Below, piece by piece: positions 6,835 through 10,944 of a DNA stretch of 64,000 nt (within the stretch, counting starts at the first letter, position 1; every line of letters starts with the position of its first letter). The DNA is from Campylobacterota bacterium (GTDB lineage: Bacteria; Campylobacterota; Campylobacteria; Campylobacterales; Sulfurovaceae): contig JAYEJF010000035.1 of assembly GCA_034660455.1 (NCBI GenBank), positions 16,436 through 80,435 on the forward strand. The letters run 5' to 3'. The translations under genes and the position numbers were made by a program. The notes under the pieces were generated by a model that was not told where the DNA came from, searched no databases, and saw nothing but the letters and a program-made list of their open reading frames with translations.

Positions 6835-9800
6835 CTACTTTAACTTAGCGTTAAATAACCACCCTCCTTTCTGCCTTGTCGTTATCTTTTTAAGTTCAGC
6901 AGAAGCTTTTTTATGACTGATATGATGATTTGCCAAATCTCTATAGATCGTGTTGGCTTTCTTTCTCCTCTTCACTGCATCTCCTGCATCCAAAAAAGCT
7001 TCTAATACCTCTATGGATCTCTGTTTTAGCCAAGTGAATCTGCTTATTTTGATTTTTTTCTCCTTTTTGGCATGGGAGGTCTCTTTATTCTCAAGTCTCT
7101 TTTCAATATACTGAATCTGGGCTTGCAGGTACTCATTTTGTGTCACAATCGCTTCTTTTGAAAATTGAAGCGTCTGCTGAACCAGCTCTTCTGTCAAAAT
7201 GTTATGATGATCAAATGCTGCAAGAGAATCAATCGCTTGGTGGATTTTTTTGGAATCACCGCTAAGAATAGTATGACAGAACTCAAAGCACTTCTCCCAT
7301 TCTACCCATTGATAGGCAAAATCCAGTCCTGTACCTTTAATATTTTGCATCCCTATGATTCTGTTATGCTTCCCAGGCAGTGTAATATGATAGATTTCCT
7401 CAATTACCTCATTTCCATTGGCATAATACTCTTCCACAACATCTATCTTTTTATCTATCCATTTCCATATATACTCCCTCAAATGCACATTAAGCTTTTC
7501 TACGTTCTCCTTTTGAGATATCTTGGATACTATATTTTTATAATCGCTATACTGTTCAATCAACTCTTTATAAAACGATAGACTCTCTTGTTCTGTTTGC
7601 AGCAACTCTTCTAAAACGTCCAAATTATCAAAGTTTTCCAGAACCTCATCTTGAAGTACAGATGTTAAACCCGAGGACTTCAACATAATTTCAAGATTGT
7701 CTCTCAGCTGTTGGGTATTTCTTATAAGACGGTACTTTTTAGCATACTGAAGCAATTTATCCGTGCTGCTTTCATCCTCGCTCACTGCCAAGGAAAGTTT
7801 ACTTTTATAATTTTCCCAGGACTCCTCAAGATAGTTTTGAAAACCTGATAGGTTAGAACCTATCAATAGATATTTATCCGCAACGATATCCTCAATGACC
7901 ATTGATGCAAATACACGGGATCTGGCGACTCTATCAGCCCTATTATTGATGACAGCGGTAATCATCATTTCCGGTTCAGATTCATCACTGATATTCTCTA
8001 AACCCATACGTTTCCAGTTACCAAGTGCTCCAAAACGCTCATTAGCACTCATTCCGTTGATGAAACCAAGTGTTTTACTCCCAATATGTGCAGGAGGATA
8101 GTCCTTGAGAACCCCTAAATCGGGTACAATATGATCAGCCATTATTTTAAGTGCTTCATCCTCATCAATCTCTAACTCCTGCGCAACGCCTAATACCAAA
8201 GCAATATTACTAGGGTGCTCCTCATAAGGAAAGCGGGAGAGGATATCAGGTGCTATCAAGCCTGCTTTAAGCCAACCTTTTTGATGATAACTCGTATCTA
8301 CATGCCTAGCATGTTCTTTCAAAATAGGAGACATAATCTCTTCGGTAGAAACCAAAATTGAATTTGGAGGTATAAAGTTTGTCATCACCTGCGGTATATT
8401 GATCCCGGCTGGTCCCTGAAGATCCTCATGATCAGGGTAGGTATTGGTAATCGTGGCGATATCATCAAGCATCCAACGCTGTTGCAATATATTTACATAC
8501 TCAGGTGTAAGCCCCATACTCTCCCATAGATAAATATCCACATCCAATCGCTCTGCCATCAACACCGTATTGGCCTGTTCCCATATCGTAGCTTTGTCAT
8601 ACGGTCGGAAGAGATACATCTCCAGCATTGGCTCAAAACTCTCAGAATGAAGGAACATTGCTTCATTTCCAGTTGTCTTAGAGAACACCCTGTATCCTAA
8701 ACCGTTAAACAAGGCTGCTTTGAGTCTCTCTGTCCCGGATTTTCCACGGGTTCCCCATCCTCCGATAGATAACGGTATGCGTTTTCTTGCATGCTTAATC
8801 TTAAATGAGAGTATCACATGCCGGAGAAAGAACATACTGAAAATACCAATGATAAATATCATCAGGTCACTTAGGGTATTTTCATATGCAGAAAGAAAAT
8901 ACCTTCCGATTGATTCCTGAACATCTATCGGTAAAAACGGCAATGGAAGTGCAAGAGAAAAAAACTTCCTTGTGCTTTTGTCCTCTTTGACATAAGGCTG
9001 ATAGGCTACTTTAAATCCAAGATCACGCATGGCATTGATATATGAAGAGGGTGCTTCACCGGAATTTGTTCTCCAATTACGCAGTCTAGCAATATTTTCA
9101 AAATGAAGAGTAAGCTTCCATGATGCTTTAAAGCGTCTCCAAACTCCTTTTGGCGGCTCTATTGTTGTAATACCATCACTCGTATAAAGGATATATGGGT
9201 ATATTTTGAGAGTGGATTGCCTTAAAGATGAAAGAAAATGGTCAGGGAGAGGTACAAATGGCCTTGCACTCTCTTCTTCAGGTATATAATAAGGCTCTCC
9301 GGGTACTTTTGTAGGTGCCTGCTCGGCCATAATGGCAGATGGAAAATGGTAGGTTCCCTCATAAACCCTGGCAATCGTATGCAAGAATGCCTCTCTTTTG
9401 TCAGAGGAAGGATGCATAAACTCGTACCATATCCTCCATCCTCTACGTTTAAATTTTTCAGAACGTTGAATTAACATTCTATGAGTCAGTGTATATCGAA
9501 TTTCCAAAGAAAAATCATCTTGTGCCACAATTGAAAGCATACGAAAAAGTTCTCCTTCATTGACTTCATAAAACTCTTTTGCTAATAATTTTGCATGACC
9601 GACCTTAATAGTTTGAATAAAGCGTTGCAGCCTTGTATAAACCATAAGACGTTCATCATCAAAGCTAAGCCAAATCACTTCACGTGCCATTGCTGCATAA
9701 CGTTTAACGGCAATATTTGCATCCGTATTGATCAGTGCTTCTATCCGCTGAAAGCTGTCATGCATAAAGTACTTGTCTACATCCGTTTTTTCTCTTGAAA

Positions 9801-10944
9801 ATAGTGCCAACTGCCTAATAGAGTATAAAACTGCCTTAAGTACAAAAGGATCTTTTTCGCTCTCTATGCTCCGACCTATAAGTTCATATAAGACTTTTTT
9901 TTGTTCATCCAAAAGAGATGCATCCAAAACCTGTGTAACTGCCAATGCCCTTACCGTTTTATCAGGATCCCTTAAAATAAGTTGCTCCCTGATATAGAGA
10001 AGATTACCATGGGTGATAGCGAGCATTTTTTTTGCAAGTGCCTGTCTGACATATGGACTTTCATCTGAAATAATCATCTGGTTAATGAATGCTACGGCCC
10101 TCTCATCCGTTTTTGAAATCTCCATACAGAGCTTTGCAATTTTATGTCGTACAAATATCGTCTCTTCGCTGACAACTCCCTCATAATACTGTTTTGCCAG
10201 GTTTAAAAAATCATCAATACTCACCTGATAGATAAACTCCAGCGCATCGTTTTGGATCCAAACATCTTCTCTCTTGGAGTTTAGAATCTTATAAAAAAAA
10301 GCAATAAGGTTTTTATCAACCGTATTTAAAAGCCGCTCTTTACTAAATCCTTTGATCATATGTAAAAATGCTCTCAAAACGCTATGCGTCAGTTGTGTCT
10401 CTTTCCTGTATTCAAAGAGATATGAAAAGTGCTGATTTAAATAAAACTTCGTCCAAATCTCTGTATCATCACGATATATATCAAGTAATATACTATAGGT
10501 TACACCCAGTCTGTCCAATATACTTATCGTCAACCTATGAATTCTTGACACTTTTGTCACAATGCGTTCCGTAAGAGCCTCTTCATCAAACCAGCGGCTA
10601 AAAGCAAGTTTATCTTGATGAAGTCTTGCTTTAGAGGAATCAAATCTAAAAGCATAATCAAGGATCAACTCCTCTTTTTGTTTTGTATCAATGATCAATG
10701 AAAGTTCTTTTTTCATATCCTCTGCAAGTCTGGTCAGTTCTTTAGCCTCATCGATATTGGTATGCAGATACTTCAAAAGAAATACAAACATTTGTTCCAT
10801 ATTCTTTTCACTATCTTTTACAAGTCGCTCGTTTCTCTTTTGCAAATCCTCATAAAAGGACTCCCTAATTGTTTTAAAATGGGCTTCATCTACATAGAGT
10901 GAAAGCTTGGAACGTTTCTGCATAAAGAGTTCAGATATAGTCAT
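6835..10944 (-). CDS. PgsB/CapB-type amide ligase (poly-gamma-glutamate synthase catalytic family) with a roughly 690-aa N-terminal HEAT-repeat extension, one hydrophobic anchor and a coiled-coil insertion
   Basis: Residues about 722-1035 and 1190-1215 are colinear with B. subtilis PgsB as I remember it. Motif pairs (this protein / PgsB) are GTRGKSGTERL / GIRGKSTVTRL, GYRVFSKTTGNEAMF / GYKTVGKTTGTDARM, ESMGLTPEYV / ECMAVNPDYQ, TNTYPDHEDLQGP / VNVLEDHMDVMGP, ALVLGVAQELEIDEDEALKIM / ALGVAQALGIDEETAFKGM, FINGMSANE / FVNGFAAND, INNRADRVARS / MNCRADRVDRT and IIGMQNIKGTG / IYGVGNIHGAA. The P-loop lies at nt 8731-8754. HEAT-like motifs are ESPYVRQALAKK, DPDKTVRALAV, EKDPFVLKAVLYSIRQLA and ANIAVKRYAAMA. 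The hydrophobic segment is LMIFIIGIFSMFFLRHVILSF. Confidence 0.8.
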   Translation of the reverse strand: MTISELFMQKRSKLSLYVDEAHFKTIRESFYEDLQKRNERLVKDSEKNMEQMFVFLLKYLHTNIDEAKELTRLAEDMKKELSLIIDTKQKEELILDYAFRFDSSKARLHQDKLAFSRWFDEEALTERIVTKVSRIHRLTISILDRLGVTYSILLDIYRDDTEIWTKFYLNQHFSYLFEYRKETQLTHSVLRAFLHMIKGFSKERLLNTVDKNLIAFFYKILNSKREDVWIQNDALEFIYQVSIDDFLNLAKQYYEGVVSEETIFVRHKIAKLCMEISKTDERAVAFINQMIISDESPYVRQALAKKMLAITHGNLLYIREQLILRDPDKTVRALAVTQVLDASLLDEQKKVLYELIGRSIESEKDPFVLKAVLYSIRQLALFSREKTDVDKYFMHDSFQRIEALINTDANIAVKRYAAMAREVIWLSFDDERLMVYTRLQRFIQTIKVGHAKLLAKEFYEVNEGELFRMLSIVAQDDFSLEIRYTLTHRMLIQRSEKFKRRGWRIWYEFMHPSSDKREAFLHTIARVYEGTYHFPSAIMAEQAPTKVPGEPYYIPEEESARPFVPLPDHFLSSLRQSTLKIYPYILYTSDGITTIEPPKGVWRRFKASWKLTLHFENIARLRNWRTNSGEAPSSYINAMRDLGFKVAYQPYVKEDKSTRKFFSLALPLPFLPIDVQESIGRYFLSAYENTLSDLMIFIIGIFSMFFLRHVILSFKIKHARKRIPLSIGGWGTRGKSGTERLKAALFNGLGYRVFSKTTGNEAMFLHSESFEPMLEMYLFRPYDKATIWEQANTVLMAERLDVDIYLWESMGLTPEYVNILQQRWMLDDIATITNTYPDHEDLQGPAGINIPQVMTNFIPPNSILVSTEEIMSPILKEHARHVDTSYHQKGWLKAGLIAPDILSRFPYEEHPSNIALVLGVAQELEIDEDEALKIMADHIVPDLGVLKDYPPAHIGSKTLGFINGMSANERFGALGNWKRMGLENISDESEPEMMITAVINNRADRVARSRVFASMVIEDIVADKYLLIGSNLSGFQNYLEESWENYKSKLSLAVSEDESSTDKLLQYAKKYRLIRNTQQLRDNLEIMLKSSGLTSVLQDEVLENFDNLDVLEELLQTEQESLSFYKELIEQYSDYKNIVSKISQKENVEKLNVHLREYIWKWIDKKIDVVEEYYANGNEVIEEIYHITLPGKHNRIIGMQNIKGTGLDFAYQWVEWEKCFEFCHTILSGDSKKIHQAIDSLAAFDHHNILTEELVQQTLQFSKEAIVTQNEYLQAQIQYIEKRLENKETSHAKKEKKIKISRFTWLKQRSIEVLEAFLDAGDAVKRRKKANTIYRDLANHHISHKKASAELKKITTRQKGGWLFNAKLK

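Follow-up and report, generated by a model that had tools for sequence, protein, structure and literature searches.

The window analysed here, 64,000 nucleotides (nt) of a genome assigned to the Campylobacterota (contig JAYEJF010000035.1), carries a run of seven genes, A, B, C, D, E, F and G, arranged in tandem on the minus strand and either overlapping or separated by gaps of at most 103 nt. At the centre of this study is gene E (positions 6835-10944, minus strand, as are all operon features below), an open reading frame (ORF) of 1369 codons with an ATG start, encoding a protein of 1369 amino acids (aa) in which an N-terminal module is fused to a long-form PgsB-like C-terminal module. The 5' end of E and the end of the preceding gene share 14 nt, and AAGGG lies ahead of the ATG. 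There are 17 full-length homologues, 30-93% identical and with E-values from 0 to 1e-163, and therefore the ORF cannot have arisen by chance. In databases, the relatives of E are named "hypothetical" or, automatically, "PgsB/CapB".

The initial annotation, made from the letters of the window and a list of its ORFs, had given the span of this ORF correctly but had not mentioned the minus strand, and had described a PgsB-type ligase preceded by HEAT-like repeats and a single hydrophobic segment. Taken as a whole, its observations are partly confirmed and its interpretation is partly supported. All the motifs that it quoted are present: ESPYVRQALAKK at aa 295-306, DPDKTVRALAV at 326-336, DPFVLKAVL at 365-373 and ANIAVKRYAAMA at 409-420, as well as the P-loop GGWGTRGKSGT at 728-738 and RIIGMQNIKGTG at 1195-1206. 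An ORF on the opposite strand within gene E (7165-7581, plus strand, 138 aa, TTG start) is probably spurious.

Two modules, fused or split

Comparison with its relatives indicates that E is built of two modules, which about one in five of these relatives encodes as adjacent, overlapping genes; the initial annotation had not recognized this two-module make-up. An exhaustive hidden Markov model (HMM) search with the N-module (aa 1-686) yielded 435 cluster representatives at E<=1e-30, which are of two kinds: fused proteins of ~1340-1530 aa, and standalone ones of ~620-720 aa with the conserved (K/R)FF motif at their end. The best 150 of these 435 representatives are fused proteins (~105), standalone modules (roughly 30, ~670 aa) or fragments, and no other fusion partner was seen among them. 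The C-module profile (aa 688-1369) brings up over 543 proteins, and the alignments of the best 120 span 88-100% of the query (all but two of them at least 95%) at 42-62% identity. Lengths of ~700-760 aa are common among these; other proteins reach 1000-1270 aa, and partial sequences fill the range between. Where the modules are split, the gene for the N-module immediately precedes that for the C-module, and the two overlap by 1-4 nt. One such split pair, in locus L004, consists of proteins of 668 and 727 aa.

The split point falls in a linker (aa 664-691, LALPLPFLPIDVQESIGRYFLSAYENTLS; 8872-8955), which consists of a short hydrophobic-proline stretch and a subsequent amphipathic helix and is modelled at a predicted local distance difference test score (pLDDT) of only 32-54. 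Its variable part, between the FF and YF motifs (aa 664-681), measures 14-33 aa across the family, with a median of 17. Just behind the linker follows a hydrophobic helix (aa 692-721; 8782-8871), recognized by Kyte-Doolittle hydropathy and aligning with the N-terminal anchor of CapB/PgsB; standalone C-modules begin 0-35 aa before it. In four homologous loci (L038, L047, L062 and L071; loci are numbered from L001) the E homologue appears to be broken into unusual pieces, at places other than the usual split point, and these cases may be frameshifts, pseudogenes or assembly errors.

The ligase core

The NCBIfam model for PgsB, TIGR04012, matches E from aa 698 to 1070 over profile positions 2-360 of 380 (E=1e-55), and the C-terminal half alone gives E=1.4e-56; the scores are 189-192 bits. 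PgsB is the sole ligase family matched by this half: no model of FolC, the Mur ligases or CphA appears even at E<10. The designation "PgsB-type" given by the initial annotation is thus supported by the HMM ranking, and at the sequence level the core turned out to be no nearer to FolC, MurC-F or cyanophycin synthetase, the families it had named as possible closer relatives. In searches of PDB sequences with protein E and with the family profile, designed HEAT proteins alone were matched, and no PgsB or Mur ligase.

The first part of the core (aa 722-1035; 7840-8781) is supported by the TIGR04012 match, by structural comparison with Foldseek and by motifs that align with CapB and with the PgsB of Cetobacterium: the P-loop at 728-738, WESMG at 807-811, TNTYPDHED at 833-841, NGMSANE at 963-969, NNRADR at 1000-1005 and LIGSN at 1027-1031. 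The core resumes at aa 1191-1214 (7303-7374), where RIIGMQNIKGTG aligns with the GNIHG motif of canonical PgsB and where Q1200, N1201, I1202, K1203 and G1206 are invariant. The catalytic motifs among these elements are GTRGKSGT (731-738, in the P-loop), E808 (the Mg/ATP glutamate) and N834/D838/H839 (the N-x3-D-H motif); none of them varies in 55-60 relatives, and in alignment they correspond to those of CapB/PgsB. In an alignment of E with Bacillus anthracis CapB and Cetobacterium PgsB, the anchor helix, the P-loop, the ECM glutamate and the motifs N-x3-D-H, NG-x-AN, N-x-R-x-DR and GNI-x-G are all in register.

An AlphaFold model of aa 655-1369, built with 60 sequences, reached a pLDDT of 86.7 and a predicted template modelling score (pTM) of 0.83. 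When submitted to Foldseek, it retrieved CphA1, FolC and MurC/E/F at probability 1.0 over ~390-420 aligned columns, with template modelling scores normalized to the target of ~0.5 (0.4-0.54 for FolC/FPGS and MurC-F); MurT was also among the structural neighbours. The model predicts that the C-module of E has a Mur-ligase fold, with a central ATPase domain and a C-terminal Rossmann-like domain.

Insertion and C-terminal tail

The two parts of the core are separated by an insertion in the C-terminal ligase domain (~aa 1040-1190; 7375-7827), apparent from motif spacing and from the AlphaFold model. The distance from LIGSN to QNIKG is 171 residues in E versus ~47 in B. anthracis CapB, which corresponds to an insertion of ~124 aa, and ranges from 143 to 200 residues across 55 aligned fused proteins. 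The insertion that the initial annotation saw splitting the core is therefore real, but its description as heptad-rich and coiled-coil does not hold. In a crude, home-made test, the best 28-residue heptad contrast was 0.50, as compared to a shuffle maximum of 0.54±0.10, so that 69% of the shuffles reach the observed value. AlphaFold predicts seven or eight helices of 7-25 residues each, with a pLDDT above 90. Because the heptad signal is lacking and the helices are short, we describe the insertion as a helical-bundle subdomain and have rejected the coiled coil.

Behind the core follows a C-terminal helical extension (aa 1215-1369; 6838-7302), a feature that the initial annotation had not noticed, defined by spacing, by the AlphaFold model and by conserved motifs. 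After NIKG there are 165 residues in E versus ~21 in CapB, an extension of ~145 aa. In the model its helices are up to 37 residues long. The motifs FLDAGDAVKRRKKAN and RQKGGW are conserved across 60 sequences, and the tail is absent in canonical PgsB. Both insertion and tail are covered by 120 of the best 120 C-module relatives.

The N-module

The structure of the N-module was read from an AlphaFold model spanning aa 170-1369. From aa 170 to ~aa 445 it contains helices only, with a pLDDT of 81-96, and the first part of the module (aa 1-445; 9610-10944) is assigned as an all-helical alpha-solenoid. HEAT repeats are detectable by sequence at aa 254-340 (9925-10185), where the family profile matches the designed alphaRep HEAT protein 6ft5_A at E=8e-12. 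The Pfam model HEAT_2 (HEAT families PF13646/PF02985) matches 17 of 18 family members (best 4.5e-10), and E itself scores 22.9 bits with it, under the gathering cutoff of 27.7. The HEAT repeats of the initial annotation are borne out by both comparisons.

The second part (aa 451-663; 8956-9594), which runs up to the (K/R)FF motif, is made of strands and helices in the model. This conserved alpha/beta domain, which the initial annotation did not contain, has 31 of the 46 invariant residues of the N-module, among them nine basic and six acidic ones. It has no match among Pfam models or PDB sequences. In a Foldseek search with the 1200-residue model, the Mur ligases dominate the results and leave the domain without a class.

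The operon partners

Protein B (14160-17357; 1065 aa) consists of a PgsC/CapC membrane domain at aa 24-156 (PF14102, E=1.7e-38), further hydrophobic helices and a large extra region, and is syntenic in nearly all related loci. With the NCBIfam model TIGR04011 it scores 44.7 bits (E=1.5e-11), below the cutoff of 96.45. Three other partners appear to be exported or anchored, judging from their hydropathy. Protein C (11782-14172; 796 aa) has an N-terminal signal peptide or anchor and otherwise no known domain, and protein D (10931-11785; 284 aa) has a signal-peptide-like N-terminus; both are syntenic. Over its entire length, protein F (1829-6781; 1650 aa), a giant exported protein whose N-terminus resembles a signal peptide, shares 30% identity with a protein of 1606 aa in locus L001 that has a Pfam OmpA domain.

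The family of protein D has a set of invariant residues (G88, P105, H106, D110, T113, R136, D140, Q167, H169, G170, F171, H244 and E246) that looks like the site of a metal hydrolase. Searches of D against Pfam, PDB and PHROG gave no match. One of its homologues, in Desulfobacula phenolica, is named N-formylglutamate amidohydrolase in UniRef. From that single name and a resemblance in motif, D might be akin to PghP-like or formylglutamate-amidohydrolase-like zinc hydrolases, a likeness that is tentative rather than established. If the name of the homologue holds, it would hint at a glutamyl-amide substrate.

Protein A (17372-19984; 870 aa) has four hydrophobic helices and ends in a degenerate histidine-kinase-type ATPase (HATPase_c at E=0.067, a WalK model at 3e-5), and is likely to be the sensor or regulator of the cluster. 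A distant homologue adjoins a single-domain response regulator in L005, an 833-aa protein stands at the equivalent position in L088, and A-like genes are found beside E in L014, L019 and L090. Protein G (520-1725; 401 aa), encoded just downstream of F, has no known domain, and its homologues were found only in two Campylobacterota loci, L001 and L048, where they lie ~5 kb downstream of E. Altogether, searches of A, B, C, D, F and G against Pfam, NCBIfam and PDB found only the CapC domain and very weak kinase-type matches. Scans for promoters and terminators at the operon ends gave counts no higher than shuffled sequence.

Distribution and synteny

A scan of one genome per species found the N-module in 177 species; its carriers thus comprise at least 177 species representatives, which are Gram-negative and belong to more than ten phyla. 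The 10-kb flanks of 80 of these loci, together with L001 and L003-L005, were searched with the window proteins. Among the syntenic loci the gene order is B-C-D-F-E almost everywhere. The sample includes Campylobacterota, Nitrospirota, Desulfobacterota, Planctomycetota, Verrucomicrobiota and Gemmatimonadota, as well as four classes of Proteobacteria (Alpha-, Beta-, Gamma- and Zetaproteobacteria). Cultured carriers include Methylovulum miyakonense HT12, Desulfocicer vacuolatum DSM 3385, Massilia glaciei B448-2, Belnapia moabensis and Azoarcus sp. CIB (AzCIB_0193).

The order in the window, with E before F, is unusual, since elsewhere (L001-L087) F almost always lies upstream of E; it is a local rearrangement in an otherwise rigid cluster. 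A compact variant (L005 and L088) consists of a sensor, a response regulator, a PgsC fusion of ~850-884 aa, a C-like protein of ~260 aa, D and a split E of 671-677 aa plus 719 aa, and has no giant F protein. Locus L090, from Candidatus Parabeggiatoa, is rearranged as well: a standalone C-module has kinase genes on either side, a C-like gene upstream is oriented divergently, and there is no N-module within 20 kb.

In the literature on PgsB/CapB-type ligases we found no description of the architecture of E or of the five-gene cluster. The cluster is also distinct from the "sfz" stalk-formation cluster of the Zetaproteobacteria, which encodes BcsB-like, GT2, GH10 and SH3-CotH proteins (PMC8250860).

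Proposed function

On balance we favour a reading in which E supplies the cytoplasmic, ATP-dependent amide ligase to a polyamide synthase of the PgsB/PgsC type, expanded here into a machine that spans the diderm envelope, and in which the N-module is a docked partner. In known systems, PgsB and PgsC polymerize glutamate at the membrane while other subunits (PgsA/E) export the chain (PMC5751247). The C-module (aa ~690-1369) would be a long-form PgsB, composed of anchor helix, Mur-ligase-type core, insertion and helical tail. The N-module (aa 1-663) would be an obligate partner subunit, remaining cytoplasmic and bound to the ligase. Wherever it occurs, the insertion and the tail are present too, which suggests that these form its docking platform. 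The hydrophobic helix and the hydrophobic-proline linker could enter and leave the membrane on the cytoplasmic side, either as a re-entrant element or buried in subunit B, the PgsC fusion.

Homology and the conserved gene surroundings make it most likely that E joins with the PgsC domain of B in an ATP-dependent polyamide synthase at the cytoplasmic face. They would polymerize an amino acid, most likely glutamate via gamma-amide bonds, and the product is probably a polyamide resembling poly-gamma-glutamate (PGA). From there the chain could pass through B to C, D and F, the exported and presumably periplasmic part, of which F would bring an OmpA-type peptidoglycan-binding domain in some species. 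The alpha/beta domain is rich in invariant arginine, lysine and histidine, and this basic character suggests that it binds a substrate or chain that is anionic; its role may be to hold or guide the nascent chain, or to gate the activity. The initial annotation had supposed that the extensions of E might act as a scaffold for the other giant subunits or as a gate. With somewhat less than even confidence, the whole could be imagined as a previously undescribed and widespread trans-envelope machine of five proteins and more than 5000 aa, mostly without recognizable domains, in which a polyamide (PGA or a new amino-acid polymer) is passed to giant periplasmic proteins for display or attachment to the wall, and in which the ligase anchor is re-entrant.

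Several points speak against the favoured reading. With TIGR04012, E scores 192 bits, less than the curated equivalog cutoff of 222.7, and much less than the controls B. anthracis CapB (592.8 bits) and Cetobacterium PgsB (381.9 bits). The Pfam model PF08245 (Mur_ligase_M) gives no match to E at E<10, while it matches both canonical controls (1.6e-8 for CapB and 3e-12 for Cetobacterium PgsB). The ligase of E thus belongs to a subfamily distinct from canonical PgsB, and because of these two deviations substrate and product could differ. No match to PgsA/CapA (PGA_cap) was found in the seven operon proteins with Pfam or NCBIfam, even at E<=5. The PDB holds no PgsB structure for comparison, so that the fold cannot separate PgsB from FolC; the sequence does. 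The docking of N-module and ligase is inferred from pTM alone. Finally, the 15 residues after the hydrophobic helix contain 4.4 lysines and arginines versus 0.85 before it, which fits an anchor that obeys the positive-inside rule with its N-terminus out and its C-terminus in, and with snorkelling of R708-H709, aa 694-712 could span the bilayer.

Some of these deviations would also suit an enzyme that does not polymerize at all. A Mur/FolC-like ligase might add one or a few amino acids to peptidoglycan, to a lipid-linked precursor or to an exported protein, in which case the cluster would serve envelope modification. The divergence of E from true PgsB and the lack of a PgsA homologue in the operon are in line with this possibility, as are the OmpA peptidoglycan-binding domain of a partner in some loci, the possible amidohydrolase D and the presence of MurT, MurC-F and FolC among the structural neighbours. 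We nevertheless regard it as unlikely, because PgsB alone is detected by sequence and because the strictly co-conserved partner B has a CapC/PgsC domain at E=1.7e-38, a domain that, to our knowledge, occurs only in PGA synthases. Fusobacterial PGA systems likewise have no PgsA.

Comparison with known systems

What is familiar here is the core chemistry; neither the subunit composition nor the anchoring is. As in the E system, the Bacillus PgsBCA(E)/CapBCADE systems have a hydrophobic helix directly before the P-loop and a PgsC-type partner in the operon, and PgsB/CapB and E share the order of the motifs G-x-RGKS, ECM, N-x3-DH, NG-x-AN, N-x-R-x-DR and GNI-x-G. The identity is 28%, however, and the bit scores given above are far apart (192 versus 593 and 382). 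Relative to PgsB/CapB, E adds the insertion of ~124 aa, the tail of ~145 aa and an N-module of 663 aa. The E operon differs from that of Bacillus in having no PgsA, PgsE or CapD, and in its giant partners. The PgsB-PgsC-PgsW cluster on plasmid p1 of Cetobacterium somerae resembles the E cluster in being of the PGA type, Gram-negative and without PgsA; in contrast, its PgsB has 376 aa, its PgsC is a small separate protein, and there is no HEAT module, no insertion and no giant exported partner. The CapsuleFinder survey defines PGA systems by CapB plus CapC and finds such pairs in most phyla (PMC5542703).

The top structural match of the C-module is the Mur-ligase-like M domain of the cyanophycin synthetase CphA1 (PDB 7lgj, 7lg5 and 7wae; E=8e-8), an enzyme that makes a non-ribosomal polyamide, as we propose for E. 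An extra N domain of CphA1 holds the growing polymer and offers a functional analogy for the basic alpha/beta domain of E. CphA1 differs in being soluble, in having an ATP-grasp domain, in its 11-13% identity without a sequence HMM match, and in the absence of HEAT repeats and of a membrane partner. FolC/FPGS and MurC-F share the two-domain fold of ATP-dependent amide ligases with E, and FolC also makes gamma-glutamyl bonds; unlike E they are soluble proteins of about 400-500 aa that have no anchor helix and give no HMM match at E<10.

What is understood of PGA synthesis comes only from small PgsBCA systems, those of Bacillus and a few others. Here, the catalytic pair PgsB/PgsC seems to have been elaborated into a much larger, conserved machine with accessory proteins that are all unannotated, and its carriers include environmentally important oxidizers of sulfur, iron and methane. 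The trans-envelope machine imagined above would, if real, be a new route to an envelope polymer in such bacteria, in Planctomycetota and in others. An anionic polyamide product could matter for metal binding, for the formation of biofilms or sheaths, and for envelope biology. The natural split and fused variants constitute a ready-made experiment on ligase anchoring and regulation.

Topology of the hydrophobic helix

The initial annotation had noted a single hydrophobic segment and no signal peptide, and both observations are confirmed. A 19-residue Kyte-Doolittle window at aa 694-712 has a mean of 2.33 and no other such segment is present in E; the only other hydrophobic stretch, of ~8 residues and containing a proline, lies in the linker. 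In the first 40 aa of E the highest 12-residue mean is 0.02, and the same measure gives 2.1-3.1 for the operon proteins A, B, C, D and F. Across the family, the helix has a median hydropathy of 2.0 and reaches at least 1.6 in 43 of 55 members. Its apolar core (aa 694-707) is followed by the conserved R708-H709 and a basic flank, and the uninterrupted apolar run that ends at this Arg-His pair is exactly 14 aa long in 46 of 55 members. A core of 14 residues is short for a full bilayer crossing, although this is not decisive.

It had also been argued that the HEAT domain and the ligase do not lie on opposite sides of the membrane. The AlphaFold model of aa 170-1369 (1200 residues; pTM 0.83, pLDDT 85.3) has the linker as its only long stretch of low confidence. 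Its pTM equals that of the C-module alone, while ~0.55 would be expected if the 494-residue N-module were placed at random; the modules are therefore predicted to be docked, which would put the two of them on the side where ATP is. Of 27 standalone N-modules, none has a hydrophobic stretch or export signal at its N-terminus (highest 12-residue mean <=1.56). Most likely, then, N-module and ligase are both cytoplasmic, and with a single hydrophobic helix between them this helix would enter and leave from the cytoplasmic side. A re-entrant or partner-buried anchor is probably a better description than a simple spanning helix, close to the re-entrant or peripheral anchor first suggested. The absence of export signals, the pTM and the brevity of the second hydrophobic stretch lend indirect support to this topology, which is itself inferred, and the flanking charges speak against it. 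There is a precedent in the monotopic phosphoglycosyl transferases of the PglC type, whose single predicted transmembrane helix in fact enters and leaves the cytoplasmic leaflet. The resemblance, which includes a proline-containing break in both, is one of analogy only, without homology to E.

The helix could instead be a true single-pass transmembrane segment with its N-terminus out and its C-terminus in (a type III anchor), so that the 690-aa N-module would be periplasmic and would work together with C, D and F. The positive-inside charge pattern described above, the hydrophobicity of the helix in most relatives and its homology to the N-terminal anchor of canonical PgsB favour such an arrangement, and the 0-35 residues ahead of the helix in standalone C-modules could be translocated. 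It is nevertheless quite improbable: neither the fused E nor any of the 27 standalone N-modules has a signal peptide, we know of no established route by which a folded N-terminal domain of 690 aa is exported without one, the pTM implies that the N-module touches the ligase, and one topology must serve fused and split forms alike.

That the 1369-aa ORF is merely an artefact, a mis-assembly or read-through uniting the two genes that stand at its position in some relatives, can be set aside as extremely improbable, since the fused form is in the majority (in most syntenic loci and in ~105 of the best 150 N-module representatives), is spread over many phyla and has an in-frame linker of conserved length.

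Other features of the window

Outside the operon, the large subunit of glutamate synthase, GltB, is encoded at 58620-63035 on the minus strand, ~48 kb from the ligase, with four Pfam domains at E<1e-70; no link to the cluster is established. Between 31062 and 39150 there are three large sensor kinases: a hybrid protein of 880 aa combining histidine kinase (HK), response regulator (RR) and Hpt domains, a kinase of 1095 aa whose periplasmic domains are NMT1/SBP_bac_3, and an HK-RR protein of 483 aa. No tRNA or tmRNA genes are found in the 64 kb (1-64000). The G+C (GC) content of the window varies between 31 and 44%, the GC skew is steadily negative, and most genes are carried by the minus strand.

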